DNA of 64,000 nt from Eledone cirrhosa (lineage: Eukaryota). Shown one piece after another: positions 1 through 51,497 of the stretch. Under the pieces are notes generated by a model that saw only the letters and a program-made list of their open reading frames with translations, was not told the origin of the DNA and did not search any database. A program made the position numbers and the translations under genes. Numbering within the stretch: position 1 is the stretch's first letter; every line of letters begins with the position of its first letter. Location of the stretch: positions 410,998,001-411,062,000 of the forward strand of contig OZ024740.1 in assembly GCA_964016885.1 (NCBI GenBank), read 5' to 3'.

Positions 1-738
1 TTACAGACTTCTGGTTTGTTGTTGCGAGCTATACCTTTTAACAGTCTCTCCTAATTGCACAGTTTTCGCTTAAAGTTCTGATATTTAGCCCTTTTCTGAT
101 AGTTATGAGACCTGACACGTATAAAGAGGACCATTTGAGATATTTATCGAGATTATATGAACGTAAGATCCGGGAGTCATGATTTAATGTCAATGTAGAT
201 ATTTAGGTATCTATAAATCTAAAATTTATTCGATAAAGTACACAAAACATCTACTGTAAATCAGTTGCGACCAAAATGACATAATAAAAAGACATTATTC
301 AAAGTTGTTCGAAATGTCGAAACTTTACTGAATATTGAGTAAATATCTGTTATATCGATTATGAAGGGACGTGTTCATAGAATAAAATACTGCATTAAAC
401 GAGGAGTGATTTGCATATGAAAACCAATTCACACACTTATATCTAATTTCCGTTCTATAGACATCTATTAATGAAAAGTATCCTAGGTTTTCCAAGTATT
501 GTGTTAAAGCAAATTATGGGCTGCAGGTCTATCGCTTGTTTGATAATAAGGAAATGTATACCAAACAATTTACAAATGTTAGGTAGCAAATACATTCTTT
601 AGATTTGAAGAGCAATGATCGGAACCATACGAAACACATATACTCATACGCGCACATACGGACATTCACACACGCAGTAATGTATGTGCACACACACACA
701 TATATATATAGCCATATAAATATCTACCTATCTTCCTG

Positions 739-6549: not shown

Positions 6550-8650
6550 ATGCAGAAACAACATCTGAATATTTCTACAAAGAACATATCCGTACCAAGC
6601 AGGAAAACATACCTAAAACTCCTGATACAGAAAACAGACGCGTTCATTAAAAGGTGGCGTTGGCGCGCCTTTTATTTCGATAACCCGCGAAAAGCAGACA
6701 ACAAACAGGATAAATTTGGATTCAAAACCTATAATAACCCCCCCGTGTAACCCAGCATTGCTACCCTTCGAAAATGATGTCTTGGAACTCATTCGGAGTA
6801 TCAAATTTCGGAATAGGAGCAATTCCTTCCAGCAAGACCTGAAGAATAGAATTCGTTCTATTAAGGATTCCAATGCCGTGCACGTCCATTCCGACAAAAC
6901 TGGCAACCTATATCAAGTGGAGCGCAGTACTTACCATCAACTACTACATAATGCTGTAACTAAGGATTACCGTAAAACTAATCGGTGTGTCATCAATGAA
7001 ATCAACGATGCTGGGTTTAAAATCACATCTGATCTCAACATCCTGGACCGGACCAAACCTCTGGACCCTATTTCTCCCCACTTTACCCTGAAGGATCACA
7101 AACCCAATTTTCCGAACAACCCCTCTATTCGGCTTATTAACCCTATGAAGTCCGATTTAGGTAGACTTAGTAAAACGATTCTTGATAGAATTATACCTGA
7201 AATTAGAAGTTTGGCCCCTCTTGCACTGTGGAACAATTCTTTCGCGGTGATTGATTGGTTGAACGGCATATGTAACAAGGAACATTGCCGTTTTATCCAA
7301 TTCGACATCAACAATTACTACTCCTCCATCACTTTACCACGTCTCCTTAGAGCTATCAATTTCGCTAAAACATTCACAGTGGTTAAGGATTTCGAAGTTG
7401 ATGTCATCCTCAATGCCCGAAAGTCGGTGATTAATTTCGACGACTCTATTTGGATTAAAAAATCCAATAGCACCCCATTCGACGTGAGCATGGGCGCTAG
7501 TGATTCTGCGGAGGTTACTGATCTTATTGGCCTTTTCCTTCTTTTCTCTATCAAGGACGAATTCCCCAACGCGGGCGGTGGTTTGTACCGTGACGATGGT
7601 CTATTGACCATGACTAAGTGCGGACCTCGTGCTTGCGACAGGTTCAGAAAAGAACTCACAGCCTTCTTTAAAGGCTTCAACCTCTCTATACAGGTTGAGG
7701 CCAATTTCTCGGTCGTTAATTACCTTGACGTTACCCTCAATTTATTGAATGGGTTGTATTACCCGTATAGAAAGCCGAATGATACGCTTAATTACATAAG
7801 TAAGCATTCCAACCATCCTGCCAGCATAACCAATAACCTGGTAAGAAACGTTTCATTGAGGCTTTCCCGTCTTTCCACCAACGAGCGTATTTTCAACGAC
7901 CATTCCACGTATTACAATGAAGCCCTTGCTCGAAGTGGATTTGTCGATAAGGTAGCATATACAGAGTACGAAAATAGACTTAGAAGAAATAGATCCCGTC
8001 GCATTTGTTGGTATAACCCACCATATAATATGGAGGTGGCCACACCATTAGCTAAGATCTTTCTTTCCCTTATTACGAAGCATTTTCCCCCTACACATAA
8101 ATATAGTAAAATTTTTAATAGAAATACTATTAAAATTTCTTACTCTACGACTCCTAACCTTGCACATAACATCACAGCTTCAAATTTAGCTAAACTACCT
8201 AGCCGTAGGAACACGTGCAACCCTGTAGTTAGTACTAACTGTAATTGTAGGAATCGGGCTGATTGCCCCCTATCCGGGAAATGCCTCTCTAGTAACATTG
8301 TCTACAAATGTAAGGTTGTAACACCCACGTCCCGTAGGGCCTACATAGGGTTAACCGCCAATAGATTCAAGCAGCGTCATTACACGCATACCCATTCTTT
8401 TCGTTACCCTCTAAGAAGGAATATGACGTCACTTTCAGCTTATATCTGGAGTCTAAAAGACAACCACACCCAATATAAGTTACACTGGGAGATCCTAGCT
8501 AGGGCTAGATCGTATAACGGAAATAAAAAACCTTGTGACCTCTGCGCCGCTGAGGCCCTGGAAATACTCTACGCCACAGACCACATCTTAAACAAAAAGT
8601 CTGAGGCAATTTCGGCTTGTAAACATAAATTGCACAAAACTTTCCTGTAA
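6550..8650 (+). CDS. Penelope-like (Naiad-type) reverse transcriptase + GIY-YIG endonuclease, one frameshift at about 6740
   Basis: N-terminal KNISVPS..YLK.LIQK..FIKRWRW (6550-6750) continues in ORF 6716-8650 with DKTGN, FDINNYY, MGASDSAE, YRDDGL, CNC..CPL..CL, IVY..YIG and C-terminal CxxC. Confidence 0.9.
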
Positions 8651-13207: not shown

Positions 13208-13267
<60 letters not shown>

Positions 13268-13269
<2 letters not shown>

Positions 13270-13503
13270 TGAAAAAGAACAAAGGAACTATTATGTCATT
13301 ATAACAAGTTTATTGCCGACAGCCGTTTCGTCCGACCATATGGTGGGACTTTTCTAGGCATATAACAGGTGATTGTAAGTTCATTAATGAACTTACAATC
13401 ACCTGTTATATGCCTTGAAAAGTTCCACCATATGGTCGGACGAATCGGCTGTCGGCAATAAACTTGTTATAATGTCATAATAGTTCCTTTGTTCTTTTTC
13501 ATT
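13268..13503. repeat. 236-bp spacerless palindrome (inverted pLTR) with two hammerhead motifs
   Basis: Centre TCATT|AATGA at 13385/13386; 118-bp arms with a few mismatches; the element extends to about 13612 between (TA)n tracts. Confidence 0.9.
13411..13457 (+). ncRNA. Type I hammerhead motif, U3-A8 core (mirror copy 13314-13360, minus strand)
   Basis: Consensus of the arms: tgcc-TTGAAAA-gtcc(caccatatggtc)ggac-GAAAC-ggct-GTC-ggca; each arm has a different core lesion. Confidence 0.7.
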
Positions 13504-13610
13504 CATATTTCTGCTCTGCTTATACGCATAGAGCTTAACTAGCTACCGTCGCATATTTGGTAGGTCAGGCGTGATCATCGCGATTCACGTACGACCTACC
13601 ATACATCTTG

Positions 13611-13662
<52 letters not shown>

Positions 13663-13951
13663 CAAATAACGAAACGAAATTAAATTTCGTTTCGTTTGTA
13701 ACTCACTTTTGTATGACTGACGCTTAAAAAATTAAGTTAAAAATGTACATCTACATATGCATACTGAAATACTAGTGTGCATATGAATACACACACGTAT
13801 ACATATGTAGATGTAACAAGTCTTTCACTGGTTGCTTTACTGTGAGCAACCCAGCTATTATGTATGTAAACACACAGACAAACCGGTTTTTAGAGTCATA
13901 CTGGTTTTCGAGGAAACACCTTCCCTCTATTCTCCAGAAAGCCAGACAAGG

Positions 13952-13996
13952 AATATTGAACTAGTTTCGTTGTTGTTACAACTCATCAGCAATATT
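13952..13996 (-). ncRNA. Canonical type I hammerhead ribozyme
   Basis: rc: aatattg-CTGATGA-gttgt(aaca)acaac-GAAAC-ta-GTT-caatatt. Confidence 0.92.
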
Positions 13997-14055
13997 TACC
14001 TATCTACCGGCCTTTCTGGAGAATTGTAAAAGCACATATCGTTATATGCTTTTTC

Positions 14056-14089
14056 TATGAAAATTAGTAGTGGGCAGACTAATTTGCAT
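14056..14089 (-). promoter_or_regulatory. Octamer ATGCAAAT + TAATTTTCATA box (putative snRNA-type promoter)
   Basis: Same two motifs with near-identical spacing at 46505-46539, 47200-47234 and 51128-51162; function inferred. Confidence 0.5.
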
Positions 14090-14418
14090 AGAGTGTGAGT
14101 ACGCACCGGTTCAGCGGAGACGATAAAAACAAATAACGAAACGAAATTAAATTTCGTTTCGTTTGTAACTCACTTTTGTATGACTGACGCTTAAACAATT
14201 AAGTTAAAAATGTACATCTACATATGCATACTGAAATACTAGTGTGCATATGAATACACACACGTATACATATGTAGATGTAACAAGTCTTTCACTGGTT
14301 GCTTTACTGTGAGCAACCCAGCTATTCTGTATGTAAACACACAGACAAACCGGTTTTTAGAGTCATACTGGTTTTCGAGGAAACACCTTCCCTCTATTCT
14401 CCAGAAAGCCAGGCAAGG

Positions 14419-14463
14419 AATATTGAACTAGTTTCGTTGTTGTTACAACTCATCAGCAATATT
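14419..14463 (-). ncRNA. Canonical type I hammerhead ribozyme
   Basis: Identical to 13952-13996. Confidence 0.92.
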
Positions 14464-14883
14464 TACCTATCTACCGGCCTTGTAACAACAACGAAACTAG
14501 TTCAATATTCCTGTTGTTATTCCAATCATTTTTTCTGTTTAACTTTGGCTTTCTAGGGTCTATTTCGCTCTCTTCTCTGATTTGCCTACCTGTTGGGTCA
14601 ATTCTATAAATAAATAGATAAACTAAAAATGACGTAGACATTACAATACAATAGGGGGGGGGGGGCATGATCATAGTACCACTGATGATGTTGCAGATGT
14701 GTAACGTGAGAACTATCTGTATTTGTGACCGTTGGTCAGTCAATGATAAACATTGATGGCCAAATGAATTAACTATGGCGATATAAAAGATGCAGAAGCT
14801 AAAACCAACCAAACAGTGAGTGTGTTCAGTTATTATTTCTGGCAATAGTATTACAAAAATATGACCCTCCCCAAGTATAATAA

Positions 14884-20867: not shown

Positions 20868-21324
20868 GGAAGACATGATATGAAGGTTAAAAAACACTTG
20901 TGAATAGTGCAGTTTTAAATCAACATATGAGAAGTAGTTTTAGTTTGATGTGTGATATTTGGGAAAACATTGGGGGGGGGGGGGTGTAAAGGATGAAAAA
21001 GAGGAGGAGATGAGAGTAACAAGTGGAGGGGGAGGAGTATAATGAGGAAGGATGAGATAGGAGGAGAGATGGGTGATAGAGAGAGAGGGATAGCTTTTAT
21101 AACTGAGAAAAATATATTGTTTTACATAGAGAGGTTGAAAAACCGTTGGAAGATAATGTATAATTTAAAAGAATTTGAAAATTAACGAAGAGAAAAATAA
21201 TGTTAAGTTAAGGATTGTATATTGAAGGGTTTAATAATATGTTATTAAGAAAAATATACGTAATCTCTTTAACCAACATAACTTAAAAAATGAATTTGAT
21301 AACAGCATCAAACTAGCTAACTTC

Positions 21325-22527
21325 TTGGATGTATCTCTTAATCTTGACACTGGCCTATATTACCCTTACCATAAAAACAATGAGAACCTAAATTATGTTA
21401 ATTTTAAATCTAACCACCCCACTAATATTAAGAATGCTATAGTTAGTAATATTGGAAAAAGAATATCTAACCTATCTTCTAATAAAAATATCTTTGATGC
21501 TAACGCCAATTACTATAATAACGCGCTTTCTAAAGCCGGCTATCCTGATAAAATCAAATATAGTAAAGAAACAAATTCTAGAAGATCTTACAGTAGAATA
21601 ATTAATCATGATCATTCCAATAACTTTAATAAAAGACCTAGATACAAAAACATAATCTGGTATAATGCTCCTTTCTCCATCTCTATTAATAATAATATTC
21701 CTAAATTATTCTTTAGTGCCTTAAATAAATGCGTCCCTCCCTCACATATCTATAGTAAAATATTTAACAAACACACTATAAAATTTTCCTATTCGACCTC
21801 CTCCAACATTTCCAACATTATCTCTAAACACAACAATAAAATACTAAATACTAAATCTCTTCCTTCCAACACTGAATATCATAATAATAGTAATAGTACT
21901 CCCGACGTCATTGTAAACTCTAGGATAATTTCTGCAAACTCAAATACAACGTCAAACACAAATTCGCTAAATGTTCTTAATCCCATTCTAAATCAAGAAA
22001 CTATTATTCCTATCGTAAATAACTTCTCCAATCCAATTCCTTCTATAGATAACACTAGGTCACTCGTTAATAACTCTGCTAATCTCTCTAATCGCAATTG
22101 CAATTGCCCTGTTAAAAATAAATGTCCTCTCAACAACCATTGTCTTGAAAAAAACTTAATCTACGAATGTAAAGTTATAACTGACACCAATTCCTTCACC
22201 TATTTTGGCTCCACTTCCACCTCCTTTAAAGCTCGTCTTTATAATCATCATTCATCTTTTAAATACCAACTTAAAAGAACCAACACGGCACTCTCAGAAC
22301 TCATATGGTCCTTGAAAGACAAAAATATTAAATATAACATCTCTTGGAAAAAGGTTTGTTCTGCTTCTTCAAACTTGAACAGTTCTTTATCCAAGACTTG
22401 CAATCTCTGTTTAAATGAAAAATTTACCATTATATCTAATTTAGATTCTATAATAAATAGACGCACTGACTTGTTTTCTCTCTGCTTGCATAAATTCCAC
22501 AGAACATTCCATAAAGTATACAGCTAA
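21325..22527 (+). CDS. PLE RT thumb + GIY-YIG endonuclease (5'-truncated)
   Basis: FLDV.L..G.YYPY.K, SNHP, WYNAPF, CNC..CPL..CL, LIY..YFG, CNLC. Confidence 0.88.
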   Translation: MDVSLNLDTGLYYPYHKNNENLNYVNFKSNHPTNIKNAIVSNIGKRISNLSSNKNIFDANANYYNNALSKAGYPDKIKYSKETNSRRSYSRIINHDHSNNFNKRPRYKNIIWYNAPFSISINNNIPKLFFSALNKCVPPSHIYSKIFNKHTIKFSYSTSSNISNIISKHNNKILNTKSLPSNTEYHNNSNSTPDVIVNSRIISANSNTTSNTNSLNVLNPILNQETIIPIVNNFSNPIPSIDNTRSLVNNSANLSNRNCNCPVKNKCPLNNHCLEKNLIYECKVITDTNSFTYFGSTSTSFKARLYNHHSSFKYQLKRTNTALSELIWSLKDKNIKYNISWKKVCSASSNLNSSLSKTCNLCLNEKFTIISNLDSIINRRTDLFSLCLHKFHRTFHKVYS

Positions 22528-41463: not shown

Positions 41464-41519
41464 ACTGCCTGATGAGGTCATAGCCATTCAATGGCTATCA
41501 TCGAAATATATATAGCAGT
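41464..41519 (+). ncRNA. Canonical type I hammerhead ribozyme in a solo pLTR-like region (about 40590-41565)
   Basis: actgc-CTGATGA-ggtcatagcca(ttcaa)tggctatcatc-GAAA-tatata-TA-gcagt, followed by AATAAA. Confidence 0.88.
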
Positions 41520-41560
41520 AAATAAAGTATTATGAGTTCATGCAATTAACTTATGTTTCG

Positions 41561-41925: not shown

Positions 41926-41998
41926 GGTCAGGTAGCTCAGTCGATAGAGCAGCGGACCGGCAATCCGAAGGTCGTGGGTTCGATTCCCACCCTGATTA
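41926..41998 (+). tRNA. tRNA-like gene/pseudogene, anticodon GGC (Ala-like)
   Basis: 73-nt cloverleaf: GGTCAGG/CCTGATT, GCTC/GAGC, CGGA/TCCG, GTGGG-TTCGATT-CCCAC. It has C33, no D-loop GG and no G3:U70, so it is probably not a translating tRNA. Confidence 0.6.
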
Positions 41999-42111
41999 CT
42001 TTTCCTATCTGCACTTCTTCCTATTCATTATTATTTATTTAACTTATTTGTTGATAAATATTTTTAATATTAATATAATATCCTTGCATTGCCTGGAAAA
42101 AAAGTGGATTA

Positions 42112-43315
42112 CAGGGAAAAACTGCGGGCGCATGTAAAGAAATATTCTTAAATTAATAAACCTAGAAAAGTAAAGGACAAGTTATTACACCTGGAAAAGT
42201 AAAGGACAAGAAAACTTTTTCTTAAAACTTCTTAAAATATTGCAGCTAAAGTCTAAATTTGAAAAAAATATTTAGATTATAAAACTAAAAATAAATAATT
42301 ATAAGTTAATTGTTAAAAAAATATCACTTTAAAGGACTGGAAAAATGACTGTCTTATAGGGAGAGTTGACTACTGTATACTTAATTTTTTTCTTGGTGTA
42401 TACAAATTAATCTTTTTAAAATAAAATTTGTACAATAATTTGTACAATAATTAATTAATAATAATAATAATAATTAATATGTACAATTTATTAATTTATG
42501 TTATAAGATATTTAAAAATGTTCACTCTTAATCAAATTACATTTTTAAAAATTTAGTTATAAAATAATGCAGTAAAATAAATCAAAAACAGTGCATCATA
42601 TAATTGCACTTTTTATGAGTATTACAGATTTTTTTTATAATATAGTAAAATTCAACATCTCAAGGGGCAAAATTAGGTAAAAGTCAATTCATCAATTATT
42701 CATTTATACTGAATAAATCAATTATAGTGAATTCATCAATTCATTAGATGAACTGTTGAATTAGACAATGTTTAATTTTTAATTGTAGTCTAATTTTACT
42801 CTACCTAAAAATGTAGATTGGTTATTTTGATCTCTGACAGGTCTTAAATTTCATTATTAAACAATTATAATTTGTTATTATTTATCATTACAGTTGGCTC
42901 CCTAATTAATTATTAATTAATTGTTAGTGTCATTTACACGCCAAAATTTTGTTATATTTAATGTTATAATTGTCACTCATTTTTTCAGTCCCATTTAGTA
43001 AAGTAAAATAAAGTATATTTATTTAATGACCCAACCACTATGGTGTAAATTAGGATCACAAAATTAAATAAATGATCATAAATTAGTATTATTATCAATT
43101 AGAGAGTCAACTGTATTATTAGAATTTATCACTCTCTATGTATAATTAAATCAAATATTTGTTATTATTCAAATTTATACTATAACTGCAATATTTTAAG
43201 AAGTTTTAAGAAGTTTTCTTGTCCTTTACTTTTCCAGGTGTAATAACTTGTCCTTTACTTTTCTAGGTTTATTAATTTAAGAATATTTCTTTACATGCGC
43301 CCGCATTTTTCCCTC
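42112..43315. mobile_element. Tc1/mariner-type non-autonomous element, ~130-bp TIRs, TA TSD
   Basis: TA-CAGGGAAAA..TGCAG (42112-42245) and its reverse complement (43186-43315)-TA; a 29-bp-period subrepeat lies in each TIR. Confidence 0.88.
42891..43113. mobile_element. Nested pogo/Tc1-like MITE
   Basis: TA-CAGTTGGCTCCCTAATT ... AATTAGAGAGTCAACTG-TA. Confidence 0.7.
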
Positions 43316-43539
43316 TAATATATATATGGATAACAAGTTATCGTTATAGGTAATCCAGTTAGAGGTTGTGAGTACTCTGTATTGTAGATAGTTTTAACGT
43401 ACGGCGTTTGACTCAACAAGAGCTTTCCTTAGTTAGGTAGCGAGTTTGCGAGAATTCCTATGCAGGTTAATCTTGGAGTAATAATAGTGAAAGATTGAAG
43501 AATATCATGGTCGGCTGTACTAAAAGGGTTTTATTTCAG

Positions 43540-44312: not shown

Positions 44313-44850
44313 TCATGTTGGTTTGAAATTTGTGAACTTGGTAGCTGCTTTGTGCCTACAGAAAATTGAACTTTCTATTTTGCTGTTAAGCAGCACCTTA
44401 TACTTTAAAATATGGAACAGCTCCTTATTGCAAAGTCCGCAGTGGGAGATTACGTTTTTGTAGGCCCTTGCTCCCGATAATTTCGACCAGCTAATCCCAT
44501 ATTCTTGGCTTGTGTCCTTAAGCTGCCAGATTTTTGGGGGCAGCGTTGTTGAGTTCTCTAGTCTACGGTTCTCCATAGAGCGTCTGTGAACGTACCATCT
44601 TTTTTTTAATTCCCCAGCCGTGGACCCTATGTAGTGCCATTTTATGTTGCCCGAATATATAGTACACAGGTACACCATATTTGATTCCAGGCATCTATTT
44701 TGTAGTGGGCACTTATCCGGCAGGTGGCAGTTACATTTGAAGGCCTTCATGTGTTCAGACTCTCCGTTGCGGTTTTGTATGTTGTTATGGATGGTTGAGA
44801 TTTAGGCTTATTAATATTTTGTTGTGATGCGCCCTGATATGTGTGTGGTT
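44313..44850 (-). pseudogene. Naiad-type PLE GIY-YIG 3' fragment
   Basis: HNKIL..CNC..CPL..CL, MVY..YIG, CGLC, CRHK. Confidence 0.85.
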
Positions 44851-45700: not shown

Positions 45701-45962
45701 GTGTGCGGGTGTACGCATATGTGGGCCTATATATGTGTGTATGTGTATTTGTGCATACATGTAGGTGTTTATGTGCATCTACCATGAATGTGTGCGGATG
45801 AGTATATATGAAGTATATATGCTTTTTATTATTACTATTATTCTTGATGTATTACTTTATCACATATCCTTTGTATATATCCGTATATGTATGTATGTAT
45901 CTGTGTAAATATGTGTGTGGGTATGTATATGTATATGTATATGTATCTGGCAGAAGGGTATA

Positions 45963-46003
45963 CGGTGCTGATGATAGCTAAGAAGCTTGAAACTAGTACA
46001 TCG
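45963..46003 (+). ncRNA. Canonical minimal type I hammerhead ribozyme
   Basis: cggtg-CTGATGA-t-agc(taagaa)gct-t-GAAAC-ta-GTA-catcg. Confidence 0.88.
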
Positions 46004-46153
46004 TTCCTGTGTCAGTGTTGAACAAAAAGGTGACGTGGTTGCCTTAACACCGTACGGCATAAATCAGGCTGTCCGCTTGTTTACAAACGGACAAAGCGGG
46101 CGTTATAATAAACGTCCACTAAACTGATACGTACATATATATATGTGTACCTG

Positions 46154-46211
<58 letters not shown>

Positions 46212-46322
46212 TGCTACTGTACGTCTGTATACATATATGTATGTACGTATACATACATACTTACATTTAAGTAAGTGCCGTACTAAGAGTGAGAAATTAA
46301 ATTTCGTTTCATTATATTACAA

Positions 46323-46450
46323 ACGTCCCTTTACGATCTGAGTTCAAATCCCGCCGAGGTTGACTTTGCCTTCCATCCTTACGGGGTCGATAAAATAAAG
46401 TACCAGTAATGAACTGTGTAATTGCTGGCCTTGTGCCTAAAGTAGAAACA
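46323..46450 (+). mobile_element. 5'-truncated family-1 SINE with 12-bp TSD (duplicate at 47018-47145)
   Basis: ATTATATTACAA at 46311-46322 and 46451-46462; empty site at 51074-51085. Confidence 0.92.
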
Positions 46451-46504
46451 ATTATATTACAACTTATCGGTTTCGGTACGCCTGGCCGACTGAACTCACT
46501 CGAT

Positions 46505-46553
46505 ATGCAAATTAGGCTGCTCAGCCGTTAATTTTCATAAGGAAAGTATATAC
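46505..46553 (+). promoter_or_regulatory. Octamer + TAATTTTCATA box + TATA-like (putative snRNA-type promoter)
   Basis: Conserved with family B; lies 35-83 nt upstream of the HHR; function inferred. Confidence 0.5.
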
Positions 46554-46587
46554 TTTCGAACGTTCAACTATCTGACAGAAGGGTATA

Positions 46588-46628
46588 CGGTGCTGATGAT
46601 AGCTAAGAAGCTTGAAACTAGTACATCG
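46588..46628 (+). ncRNA. Canonical minimal type I hammerhead ribozyme
   Basis: Identical to 45963-46003. Confidence 0.88.
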
Positions 46629-46778
46629 TTCCTGTGTCAGTGTTGAACAAAAAGGTGACGTGGTTGCCTTAACACCGTACGGCATAAATCAGGCTGTCCG
46701 CTTGTTTACAAACGGACAAAGCGGGCGTTATAATAAACGTCCGCTAAACTGATACGTACATATATATATGTGTACCTG

Positions 46779-46906
<128 letters not shown>

Positions 46907-47282
46907 TGCTACTGTACGTCTGTATACATATATGTATGTACGTATACATACATACTTACATTTAAGTAAGTGCCGTACTAAGAGTGGGAAATTAAATTTC
47001 GTTTCATTATATTACAAACGTCCCTTTACGATCTGAGTTCAAATCCCGCCGAGGTTGACTTTGCCTTTCATCCTTACGGGGTCGATAAAATAAAGTACCA
47101 GTAATCAACTGTGTAATTGCTGGCCTTGTGCCTAAAGTAGAAACAATTATATTACAACTTATCGGTTTCGGTACGCCTGGCCGACTGAACTCACTCGATA
47201 TGCAAATTAGGCTGCTCAGCCGTTAATTTTCATAAGGAAAGTATATACTTTCGAACGTTCAACTATCTGGCAGAAGGGTATA

Positions 47283-47323
47283 CGGTGCAGATGATAGCTA
47301 AGAAGCTTGAAACTAGTACATCG
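47283..47323 (+). ncRNA. Hammerhead copy with U4A lesion (CAGATGA)
   Basis: Otherwise identical to 45963-46003. Confidence 0.75.
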
Positions 47324-47473
47324 TTCCTGTGTCAGTGCTGAACAGGTGACGTGGTTGCCTTAACACCGTACGGCATAAATCAGGCTGTCCGCTTGTTTAC
47401 AAACGGACAAAGTGGGCGTTATAATAAACGTCCGCTAAACTGATACGTACATATATATATATATGTGTACCTG

Positions 47474-47510
<37 letters not shown>

Positions 47511-48524
47511 GATATTAAATAAATGGAAACTATATTTATAAAACCATATTTATTTCATTATATATATTTCAGGGATATCATATTAAAAATATGTTATTTC
47601 TTCTTCAGACAAAATACAATATAAACAGTCTTATAAATAGATAGATTTGACATACCTTTCAACTTCATCTTCCATTTAAAAAGTTGATTTGGTAGTGAAA
47701 AATGTTAGGGACAGTTATAAAAAGAAAGAAAGAAAGAAAGAAAGAAAGAAAAAAAGAAGAAATGCATGCAACTAAATAGAGAGAGATAGATATAGAGAGA
47801 TAGATAGAGAGAGGAATTCATGTAAAGAAACAGAGAGAGATATATATAGAGAGGAAAAAACACAGAGGGAGATAGATAGAGAGAGAGAGAGAGAAAAAAA
47901 AAATAGAGAGAGAGAGATATAGATAGAGATAGAGAGAAAGAAAATAGGTAGTTGGGCATCAGTTGAATGACGTATCAATGATATATTTATTTATTTATTT
48001 ATTCATTTAGTTCTAGTATTAATATAGAGAGAGATATATGTGGTTAGGAGAGAAAACAGCCGTTACATAGAGAGAAAAGAAAAATATCCAGACATAAACG
48101 AGGCAGATTTAAAACACTATGTTTCATCAATGTAAAAATATAAATTCGTATGAATCAGGCATTATAATGTAAATATCAGTATTCATGAATGAGACACGTA
48201 TCAATAATGTGTGAAAAATAATGATCATATGTCTAGTTTAAAAATTCCTAGGTTTATATTAGAGTTGAGATAAAATAGAAGGTTATCCCAGATTCGATAC
48301 TATAGACATCCATGTGAATTTACGTGATCAACTCTGCAAATTCCTATTTCACACGAAAACATTCTCATTGTGCTATAAAATTCTAGTATACATATATGTG
48401 TACATACACACAAATATATATAGAGTCTACATTAATTATAACAATACTATTCTTGTCTTTACTCTACATGATTATCGTTCAAGCATAAATAAAGAACAGA
48501 TATCAATATATCAATAAAAATATC

Positions 48525-48554
48525 AGAAATAAAAATAAAAAAATATTAAAATAT

Positions 48555-48585
<31 letters not shown>

Positions 48586-48689
48586 AAATAAAAAATAAAA
48601 AATAAAAAATAAAAAATAAAAAATAAAAAATAAAAAATAAAAAATAAAAAATAAAAAATAAAAAATAAAAAAATAAAAAATAAAAAAAT

Positions 48690-48726
<37 letters not shown>

Positions 48727-48924
48727 AAATAAAAAATAAAAAATAAAAAATAAAAAATAAAAAAATAAAAAATAAAAAATAAAAAATAAAAAATAAAAAA
48801 TAAAAAATAAAAAATAAAAAATAAAAAATAAAAAATAAAAAATAAAAAATAAAAAATAAAAAATAAAAAATAAAAAATAAAAAATAAAAAATAAAAAATA
48901 AAAAATAAAAAATAAAAAATAAAA
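48525..48924. repeat. (TAAAAAA)n 7-bp tandem repeat
   Basis: Seen directly. Confidence 0.95.
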
Positions 48925-49273
48925 CATAGTATGCCCCGCAAATCAACCACAGAGATCAACCCTTCAAGGTTAATTGACAATATATTGCCAAGTTCGTTAT
49001 AAGCATCAGAATCAAAAGCAAACAAAACCAAAATTATTTACCAAATCCTGTCTAGCAGAAATCATTCCAAAAGTTTAGGATAGCCATTTGATCTACAGAT
49101 GGTCTTATATTTAATAGAGGTTTATCTAGTGTAAAATTTATTCGATATATTTGGAGCATCAGCTTTTAGGGTAGTTTAATTATTCATGAAGAATGTTTAA
49201 AATAAAAAAGAAATCGAAAGATTTATCGGCGAGTTTCATAAATAATTATAAATCAAGTTAAATATACTACATT

Positions 49274-50815
49274 TTAAATTTGTATTTATATTTAAAAGTT
49301 GAGTTCAATCTATGTCTGCAGCAACTGAATAAATTTGTCCGTAAATTAAGGGAATTTTTAGATTTTAGTATAAAGAATATCTCCTCCGCGCAGAGGTCAC
49401 ATGTCTCAGAGGATGAATTAAAAGGAATCCCTCTTGAGACTATATTCCAAGCCGTCGAATATCCAACGTTATCATGCTTAAGTTGCCAGAGTAGGCCTGA
49501 TAGTGATGTTGAAGATTTTTAGCTTGGATCTGTGAAAGAATACTTGTGGTTATTATAGCGAAGTTTAAATTCTGTCGAGGTGGAACCAACATAGTTAAAA
49601 GAATTTAAGTCCGTTTTAACATTACAGTTATATATTATATTTTTAACTAAGCAATTGTTATTTAACGGACATTTAGATCTATCTCTACAGTTACATTTGT
49701 TTACTTGGATATTATTTATGCTATTATCGGTATTTTGGCTAGGTTTTAAATTCCTATTATTTATTCTATTAATATTTTGTGCTAAATTTTTGGTGGATGA
49801 GTAAGTTAATTTTATAGTATGTCTATTGAAAATTGAGTGATACCTATGTGTTCTAGGGAAGCGATTATCAAGAGCGTTAAAAAATAGTTTAGCGATGTGG
49901 GTTTTAATGTTTAGTAAGAAAGGGGGGGCAAACCATATTATATTCCTAGTTCTATTTCTTTTTTGGCTTTTGGAATTATTGTAATGCTTTCTATTATAGT
50001 TGTTAAAGTTGTTGCCGTAATTAAAATTGTTGTTATTTTGGTTAGTTTGTCTATTATTTTCTATGTACATAATTTTATCACTATATCCTGCTCTAGCTAA
50101 CGCTTCATTGTAATACTGGGCTTTTTCGTCGAAAATCTTTTTATTAGATGAGATTCTAGAGATACGTTTTTGAACAGAGTTTACTATAGTATTTTTAACA
50201 GATCTGGGGTGGTTAGAATTAAAGCTGACATAGTTTAAGTTTTCATTCAACCTGTGAAATGGATAGTGAAGACATGTGTTGAGATTTAATGTTACATCTA
50301 GGAAATTGACTATTCTATGGTTATTCTCAATTTCTATTTTTAGATTAAAGTAATTAAAAATTGTGTAATTTGTTTTCTTTTTCTATTTAGTTCAGAGTTA
50401 TTATTTTCAATAAGGAAAAGCATGTCATCTCTATATAAACCTCCGGTAGCACCGGGTATTTTCCTATGCAGCGAATTGATTATAAAAAGGCCCACAAGGT
50501 CAGTTACCTGCGCTGAGTCGGATGATCCCATAGTAATGTCGAAATTGTTATGTCTATCTGCTCTGGTCCATAGTTGGTCATTAAATTCTATCAATGTTTT
50601 CCTAACCGATAATATAATGTGCATTTCATTGTTAGTTAGGTCTGTATGTTTGAATGCGTAATTTAGTGCCTTATTTAGTAGATTAGAGGTAATAGATGAA
50701 TAATAGTTAGCAATATCTAGTTGAATAAATTTATTATTATTGTTATATTTAATTTCTTTAAACCACTCAATAACCTCTCCAGTTCCCTTCCACAAGCTCA
50801 AGTTAGGTAAACAAT
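49274..50815 (-). pseudogene. 5'-truncated Naiad-type PLE (RT + GIY-YIG)
   Basis: FIQLDIANYY, MGSSDSAQ, YRDDML, SNHP, WFAPPF, CNC..CPL, YVG; frameshift at about 50350 and an in-frame TAA at 49519-49521. Confidence 0.9.
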
Positions 50816-50912
50816 TATTTAATATCGTAAATATACTCCAAATACTTGTTGAGTGCTTTTATATCAGTTATAAATATTTACTCGTTGTAACCCAACAATT
50901 TAAATAAAACTT

Positions 50913-50969
<57 letters not shown>

Positions 50970-50974
<5 letters not shown>

Positions 50975-51401
50975 TGCTACTGTACGTCTGTATACATATA
51001 TGTATGTACGTATACATACATACTTACATTTAAGTAAGTGCCGTACTAAGAGTGAGAAATGAAATTTCGTTTCATTATATTACAACTTATCGTTTTCGGT
51101 ACGCCCGGCCGACTGAACTCACTCGATATGCAAATTAGGCTGCTCAGCCGTTAATTTTCATAAGGAAAGTATATACTTTCGAACGTTCAACTATCTGACA
51201 GAAGGGTATACGGTGCTGATGATAGCTAAGAAGCTTGAAACTAGTACATCGTTCCTGTGTCAGTGTTGAACAAAAATGTGACGTGGTTGCCTTAACACCG
51301 TACGGCATAAATCAGGCTGTCCGCTTGTTTACAAACGGACAAAGTGGGGGTTATAATAAACGTCCGCTAAACTGATACGTACATATATATATGTGTACCT
51401 G

Positions 51402-51443
<42 letters not shown>

Positions 51444-51497
51444 TGCTACTCTACGTCTGTATACATATATGTATGTAGTACGTATACATACATACTT
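50970..51497 (+). mobile_element. Retrozyme-like family A monomer without the SINE (HHR at 51211-51251)
   Basis: Near-identical to the 45944-47478 units, with an intact HHR and an octamer at 51128. Confidence 0.88.

Follow-up and report, generated by a model that had tools for sequence, protein, structure and literature searches.

The window analysed here is a stretch of 64,000 nucleotides (G000:C1:410,998,001-411,062,000) of a 3.0 Gb genome, and it carries two families of dispersed short tandem repeats, A and B, which are non-coding type I hammerhead ribozyme (HHR) repeats that insert as Penelope-like elements (PLEs) do. Table 1 lists their features. The B unit is 467 nt long and the A unit about 470-540 nt, or 625-695 nt with a SINE piece, which is found with an 11-nt duplication in two A units of the window; the SINE fragment that interrupts the A tail of Table 1 is flanked by the direct repeat TTATATTACAA at 46312-46322 and 46452-46462. 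Copies are 96-97% alike within A1, and likewise within B. On its 5' side the B array carries a short piece of HHR in inverted orientation, and T5 runs lie in its 3' tail region (14210-14206 and 14129-14125); it adjoins a 123-nt inverted repeat (96%) with perfectly abutting arms at 13263-13508, between (TA)n runs, which probably represents one more inverted end of PLE type. B also forms long arrays, of about 31 units (G000:C1:5.738-5.752 Mb) and about 15 units (C1:14.044-14.051 Mb), which are consistent with rolling-circle copying or local amplification.

Four Penelope-like frames were observed in the window at 6626-8650 (+), 21238-22527 (+), 44313-44801 (-) and 49519-50858 (-), with an RT, a Cys-rich linker, a GIY-YIG-type end and a mutual identity of about 40% where compared. 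We take these frames to be PLEs from their RT and GIY-YIG motifs and their architecture; Pfam matched none of five proteins from PLE frames, and PDB sequences gave nothing for the longest frame. The frame at 21238 is accompanied by a sense HHR (23573) and by an inverted 5' copy that ends at a short end. An AATAAAA tract of 59 copies (48513-48928) lies in the 3' region of the PLE inserted into the A array. The window also contains a tRNA-like gene at 41926-41998 (Rfam E 1.8e-11) and then an AT-rich element at 42100-43320, which has terminal inverted repeats with 29-nt duplications inside.

Table 1. Features of the family A and family B arrays in the window (HHR, hammerhead ribozyme; positions relative to the start are predicted).
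Feature	Position	Strand	Remarks
Family A array, left part	45944..47510	+	two units with SINE and a third HHR; (TA)n run at end
Family A 3' tail	46263..46467	+	short end after 46269; palindrome 46293-46310; long end after 46467
Family A 12-mer TATGCAAATTAG	46504..46515	+	predicted -73; others 47199-47210, 51127-51138
Family A YCAG	46521..46524	+	predicted -56, register of host Pol II snRNA promoters; others 47216, 51144
Family A box 2	46529..46539	+	near reverse complement of 12-mer; 3' arm of predicted RNA hairpin; family-specific
Family A TATA box	46547..46552	+	predicted -30; 43 nt past 12-mer start; others 47242, 51170
Family A predicted transcription start	46577	+	A of CAG, start after the C; TATA+30; also 47272, 51200
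Family A type I HHR	46574..46638	+	core 46593; palindromic helix III ACTAGT; predicted cut after 46623 (GUA)
Other family A HHR cores	45968, 47288, 51216	+	variant core CAGATGA at 47288
PLE splitting the A array	47510..50915	-	antisense insertion in (TA)n run of A unit, outside A unit proper; broken frames at 49519-50858 (RT, GIY-YIG-type); carries its own HHR in sense (47608)
Family A array, right part	50916..51497	+	one HHR unit with candidate promoter, without SINE
Family B array	13656..14476	-	period 467 nt; ~1.75 units; long 3' end (13656) in (TA)n
Family B type I HHR	13931..14020	-	core 13989; helix III ACTAGT; predicted cut after 13959 (GUU)
Family B predicted transcription start	14017	-	
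Family B TATA-like box	14043..14048	-	predicted start 14017
Family B box 2 (CTAATTTTCATA)	14056..14067	-	11/12 complementary to 12-mer
Family B YCA	14071..14073	-	predicted -56
Family B 12-mer TATGCAAATTAG	14079..14090	-	predicted -73
Family B 3' tail	14123..14197	-	short ends 14197/14192; palindrome 14160-14138; long end 14123
Upstream family B HHR copy	core 14456	-	

The HHR core with helix III ACTAGT is common to A and B and gives 23,699 matches genome-wide (control 2). Rfam HH9 matched the B copies at E 3e-6 and 4e-5, under the gathering score, and the A copies had no match in the Rfam search; A has a U-U at the base of helix II, as does axolotl HHR_Amex2. A second HHR class, with helix III ATATAT, gives 40,871 matches (control 94), including 41469-41520 (+) and 47608-47559 (-) in the window. 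Many of its members have a common 3' end containing TTTCCATTTAT, and the 3' end of the window PLE belongs to this class; we call these HHRs PLE ends because they are like the window element. Unlike A and B, these HHR-bearing PLE ends are without the 12-mer described below (0 of 30 loci within 200 nt upstream, allowing up to 2 mismatches), and no upstream ORF was detected in the 1.5-kb flanks of the 30 loci.

The initial annotation had proposed that each unit has a built-in snRNA-type promoter, made of an octamer, a TAATTTTCATA box 15-16 nt further on and a TATA-like run, with ACTCAC upstream. All of these elements are in place: TAATTTTCATA follows the octamer by 16 nt in A and 15 nt in B, and the TATA-like runs lie at 46547, 47242, 51170 and 14048. 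The octamer is contained in a 12-mer, TATGCAAAT[T/G]AG. ATGCAAAT is found at 46505, 47200 and 51128 on the plus strand and at 14089 on the minus strand, and the 12-mer TATGCAAATTAG has exactly four sites in the window, the same as these, with a chance expectation of 0.03; the bare octamer occurs 13 times vs 4.5 expected. The two-box pattern has 8,863 + 8,391 = 17,254 exact matches genome-wide, and the reversed control has none. The main proposal is supported by the comparison with host snRNA genes and by conservation in at least seven families, although four of its details had to be given up.

The comparison set comprised snRNA-type genes fetched from the same genome. The 12-mer, as TATG[CG][AT]AAT[TG]AG, lies at -77 to -80 with a TATA box at -30/-31 in seven out of eight selected Pol III type-3 promoters, namely U6 (three independent promoters), U6atac, MRP and both tRNA-Sec genes; the exception is one weak 7SK match. 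Outside this count, 12 of 20 U6 loci have the 12-mer in place, six are array copies interrupted by a SINE and two are without it, and the 12-mer is also missing from nine of ten U6atac matches (all except the best) and from two of the four tRNA-Sec matches looked at (six weaker ones were left out), all pseudogene-like. In the U6 array on C19 the SINE sits between the TATA box and the U6 body in 6 of 16 fetched copies (L007, L008, L010-L013), scattered along the array. The 12-mer is absent from the vault and SRP genes and from all 15 representative Pol II promoters (U1, U2, U3, U5, U12). The octamer had been read as a distal element; in the host it stands at -78, and in Pol III type-3 genes only.

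The promoters of U1, U2, U3, U5 and U12 have YCA(GT) at -55 to -58 (TCAGT is the register motif) and TATA near -30, and mostly AATTAR near -90. Plant Pol II snRNA promoters likewise carry a TATA box, and vertebrate ones are not known to. All 15 host Pol II snRNA promoters have a YCA 25-28 nt before the TATA box; none of the eight Pol III promoters does, and six of these have CCT 31-33 nt before TATA. The first nucleotide is A in host Pol II snRNAs (start at YA) and G in Pol III RNAs, and host Pol III genes terminate in T5-T10. Two further marks of the host Pol II snRNA genes, AATTAR (about -90) and TTACYTCCCTT (about -260), are absent from A and B. TTACYTCCCTT is common to U1, U6 and the main U2 array at about -257 to -288 (L001-L003, L021-L031, L043), is absent from the U6atac, MRP and tRNA-Sec loci checked, and is a candidate distal element. 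No 12-mer of the U6 class is found at the RNase P RNA gene (L262, G000:C24:12936134), whose upstream region shows AAATCAGT and a TATA box as in U1/U2; this suggests a Pol II snRNA-type promoter, with the exact +1 uncertain.

A search for the 12-mer plus HHR without the A/B spacer gave 984 matches (control 0) and revealed families C to H, which have unrelated spacers; the 12-mer is kept in at least seven repeat families. Ten sequences were aligned (mean identity 53%). The columns without variation are those of the 12-mer and of the HHR core, both required by the search pattern, and those of CA at +18/19 and ATATA, which were not required. The distance from the 12-mer to TATA is 42-44 nt in A, B, C, D, F and G (A 43, B 42), and this short form has 29,111 sites genome-wide, in which overlapping matches may count twice (control 467). 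For families E and H, as for host Pol III genes, the offset is 47-49 nt (682 sites, control 66). No host gene with the exact short geometry was found among U1, U2, U3, U5, U12, U6, U6atac, MRP, RNase P, tRNA-Sec, 7SK, SRP and vault.

The repeats also share the register of the host Pol II promoters. A YCA 25-28 nt before TATA is present in 14 of 16 repeat representatives (background 10.6%), and among fetched sites with TATA, sorted into families by crude signatures, in 61/65 (A1), 11/12 (A2), 70/71 (B), 16/16 (C), 6/11 (D), 5/8 (E) and 3/3 (F). With the same sorting, CAG is found at TATA+29..31 in 65/65 (A1), 9/12 (A2), 52/71 (B), 15/16 (C), 6/11 (D), 0/8 (E) and 3/3 (F) against a background of 3.5%; these counts are for 3-nt motifs in windows picked after data inspection, in families related by ancestry. 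RNA structure could help to keep the CAG, which opens stem I, and the TATA, which lies in a hairpin.

Which polymerase would read such a module? The 12-mer argues for Pol III: it is a Pol III mark in the host, identical to the version in U6 (C9) and tRNA-Sec and confined to Pol III genes, and both host variants (TTAG and TGAG) are present in the repeats. The module may accordingly be viewed as a type-3, U6-like Pol III promoter with a shortened spacer, multimers being produced by leaky termination. Families E and H, with their host spacing of 48-49 nt and often a G at +1, agree with this, and human U6 is described as tolerating small spacer changes of -2/+3 nt, some Pol III loci being also read by Pol II (PMC11696126). 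Insect PSEA-TATA spacing is described as tightly kept (PMC1761439). However, the shift here is 4-6 nt, from 47-49 nt in the host to 42-44 nt in A, B, C, D, F and G, which exceeds the tolerance given for U6 (PMC11696126). Moreover, where host Pol III promoters (6/8) have CCT, the repeats have YCA at the Pol II register, and the T5 runs in B, as well as T6-8 runs just past the HHR in two of four E copies inspected, would halt Pol III before the next promoter. We regard a Pol III promoter as rather doubtful. Sense T runs in B amount to two T5 and two T4, and A has only T4. Pol II is favoured because of the short offset, the YCA register, the CAG at the predicted start, whose A falls at TATA+30/31, and the T5 runs in B. 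Against Pol II stand the 12-mer as a host Pol III mark, the missing -90 and -260 marks in A and B, and family E, which keeps the host U6 spacing and has no CAG in eight sites. The E copies L284 and L304 have T6-T8 runs right after the HHR despite their U6-type spacing, which would be unexplained if Pol III reads E. On balance the module is likely a hybrid snRNA-type external promoter for Pol II.

The second box had been proposed to be the PSE. It has no counterpart at the matching place in host promoters, differs in A2, is absent from C-H and pairs with the 12-mer as the 3' arm of a hairpin, so it was rejected as a PSE. The 12-mer and the TATA box are kept across families, but box 2 is not shared beyond A1 and B, and its conservation is accounted for by RNA pairing, an outcome that the initial annotation had named as counting against its reading. 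Two other roles were tried for this box: a T4 terminator is ruled out by TAATATGCATA in A2, and an antisense 12-mer promoter lacks a TATA at host distance on that strand (sequence read directly). Pairing of the 12-mer with downstream sequence exceeds shuffles in 10 of 18 repeat sequences vs 1 of 7 host promoters, and the hairpin covaries, with TTAG/CTAA in B and TGAG/CTCA in C. The 5' arm stays within the two host variants and the 3' arm is family-specific. Because the 3' arm varies and covaries and the 5' arm does not leave those variants, box 2 owes its conservation to RNA pairing and the 12-mer to its sequence. The pairing further implies that the promoter region belongs to the RNA, as a tandem or circular template needs.

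The same observations allow the motifs to be RNA structure, or protein sites on a (circular) RNA, with an incidental likeness to host promoters. Besides the pairing and covariation, the TATA box of both A and B falls within a palindrome or a hairpin, and the B monomer as a whole is highly self-paired (-162 kcal/mol when folded as a circle, vs -95 +/- 5.7 kcal/mol for 60 shuffles, z = -11.8). Pairing alone, however, would leave both arms free to drift, and only the 3' arm changes between families; the invariant CA falls in the hairpin loop in B, C and D, and a chance match to the host 12-mer has p of about 1e-3 per unit, with YCA, TATA and the CAG start also at host distances. A purely RNA-level role seems improbable to us, and we hold a working promoter in A and B to be quite probable.

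Insertion anatomy was mapped at loci chosen by promoter or HHR matches, and not as a random sample. Here 105 B arms begin all round the 467-nt unit. Of the 101 whose 3' end is visible, 51 finish at the long end (position 14123 of the window) and 38 at one of the short ends (14197-14192); the 3' flanks are nearly all (TA)n. Inverted B pairs typically have one long and one short 3' end, and loose ends at the same places were seen in independent contigs. Among 57 A ends within the scored segment, 28 are the long end. The two fixed 3' ends of A and B are the PLE tail, which is described as reflecting two internal RT start sites shown in vitro (PMC11167929). Inverted arms and a (TA)n bias are described for PLEs (PMC8557442); A and B have both, with inverted arms that are truncated at the 5' side and a preference for (TA)n targets, and they also form partial tandems with two fixed 3' ends. 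The GAAAT..AATTTCGTTTC palindrome, which the initial annotation had placed with the promoter, is indeed present in five places of the window; it lies outside the promoter, in the 3' tail, and its location between the two 3' ends makes it part of the integration signal.

Both window arrays start near an HHR, as had been noted, but this does not extend to the genome: B arms have their 5' ends at positions throughout the unit, and of 53 A starts just two are close to the predicted transcription start. Array starts as marks of transcription initiation were therefore abandoned: 9 of 105 B starts fall at 106-121 (3.6 expected, p 0.012, the interval having been picked post hoc), a further 11 fall at 172-185, positions 131-171 are empty, and no start cluster was seen in A. 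We did not count the B clusters as support because both flank the stem I hairpin and because the alignment can slip at inversion joints; the 5' ends of neither family show a clear step at a transcription start. In contigs from two other organisms, one single contig each, family B departs into unrelated sequence at window 14022, which is 5 nt before the predicted start.

The spread of 5' ends round the unit, and the frequent adjacency of copies to PLEs, would fit a promoter captured once from a host gene and now a passive relic, the repeats being transcribed by read-through from host genes or PLE promoters. Against this, the spacers of different families can hardly be aligned any more, yet four motifs and the distances between them have been retained, and the youngest families (96-97% identity among copies) keep all motifs, so that a relic is very improbable. 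Family A was also tried as the pLTR of the neighbouring PLE and rejected: that PLE runs antisense to A, is inserted in A's (TA)n run and possesses an HHR of its own. The sole sequence likeness to PLE ends that was seen is the 11-nt TTTCCATTTAT, common to the A2 long end and many PLE-type ends. At L207:4390-7150 an A2 fragment with the 12-mer module and HHR lies between two inverted arms of one PLE, possibly by a template switch of the PLE RT. No autonomous PLE with clear homology was found when the window frames were compared by tblastn with fetched loci, and there was no consistent sense junction.

Taken together, we lean, by a little over an even chance, towards host snRNA-gene promoter motifs upstream of the HHR that form an external promoter read by Pol II. 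Transcription would be initiated by SNAPc/TBP-type factors, some 16 nt ahead of the HHR core in A and some 28 nt ahead of it in B, with a POU factor or SNAPc as candidates for binding the 12-mer, and the RNA, reading through the tandem, would contain the promoter of the next unit. The palindromic helix III would let two HHRs cut as a dimer and free unit-length RNA, which may then circularise; dimeric cleavage is proposed by analogy with described hammerheads (PMC6765202, PMC6155905). The 12-mer would be sequestered in a hairpin with box 2 as its pairing arm because the promoter is also part of the RNA. A PLE RT-endonuclease would nick (TA)n and prime cDNA at two fixed internal sites around the palindrome, and a cDNA spanning more than one unit would restore the promoter before the HHR. 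In this way tens of thousands of HHR repeats would each likely switch on their own transcription.

Coats, Zhang and Epstein are said to have described in 1994 an octamer/PSE promoter in newt satellite 2. Newt satellite 2 has vertebrate promoter grammar, and the A/B 12-mer matches the host Pol III class, with TATA, in at least seven families. As described, this HHR tandem repeat is like A and B in its Pol II transcription from an snRNA-type promoter and its dimeric cleavage (PMC2220036, PMC6765202). In Schistosoma SM-alpha and Sj-alpha the promoter is described in the 3' part of the cleaved RNA, so a tandem is needed and one unit serves the next, as here, but that promoter is a SINE-like Pol III one and the A/B module is upstream and of snRNA-gene type (PMC6765202). 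Metazoan non-LTR retrozymes, described as PLE derivatives, share with A and B non-coding tandem units with a type I HHR each, low GC, a highly self-paired monomer (as folded for B), thousands of copies and a proposed PLE dependence (PMC7229834; bioRxiv 10.64898/2026.07.22.740005). Their units are given as about 170-400 nt, a descriptive range and not a mechanism, and those of A and B are longer. No promoter is discussed in the available text of these papers, where the word occurs only for T7 in PMC7229834 and is absent from bioRxiv 10.64898/2026.07.22.740005. The descriptions of PLEs and their non-autonomous derivatives give traits that A and B have as well: tandems that are partial, arms that are inverted and 5'-truncated, insertion at (TA)n, a tail delimited by two fixed 3' ends, and an HHR whose helix III is palindromic (PMC8557442, PMC11167929). 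A and B differ in being without an ORF, in their tail of 58-74 nt vs 30-40 nt in PLEs, and in that the PLE promoters described are internal and intron-overlapping (PMC8557442, PMC11167929). SINEU is, like A and B, a retroposon tied to snRNA genes (Kojima 2015, PMC4494074); as described it has an snRNA body and no recognisable promoter, and A and B have the upstream promoter and no snRNA body. No description of the promoter module, or of such repeats in cephalopods, was found in the full-text literature searched (most subscription journals and Repbase lie outside it). Promoter-bearing HHR repeats were thus already known from newt and schistosome, and the architecture seen here was not found in that literature.

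Metazoan retrozymes are reported as abundant circular RNAs, and what drives their transcription is not stated in the available text of the papers (PMC7229834; bioRxiv 10.64898/2026.07.22.740005). Retroposition normally loses an upstream promoter, and tandem or circular templates are one way of keeping one. The candidate promoter is defined to the nucleotide; no fewer than seven families share it, at about 29,000 sites, and it makes exact predictions of a start site, three motifs and a polymerase. As a by-product, the U6-class and U1/U2-class promoter motifs of this animal have been defined, with a use in guide-RNA expression vectors. The A/B repeats could titrate snRNA-gene transcription factors. 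We tentatively suggest, as a possibility we hold to be short of probable, that a retrozyme lineage captured the U6-class promoter of the host and made it Pol II by shortening the distance to TATA by half a helical turn and setting YCA at the U1/U2 register; E and H, as old families, would still have the U6 geometry. If true, the switch would have allowed read-through of T runs and copying of the element's own external promoter, and would be a natural polymerase-switch experiment in a transposon family.
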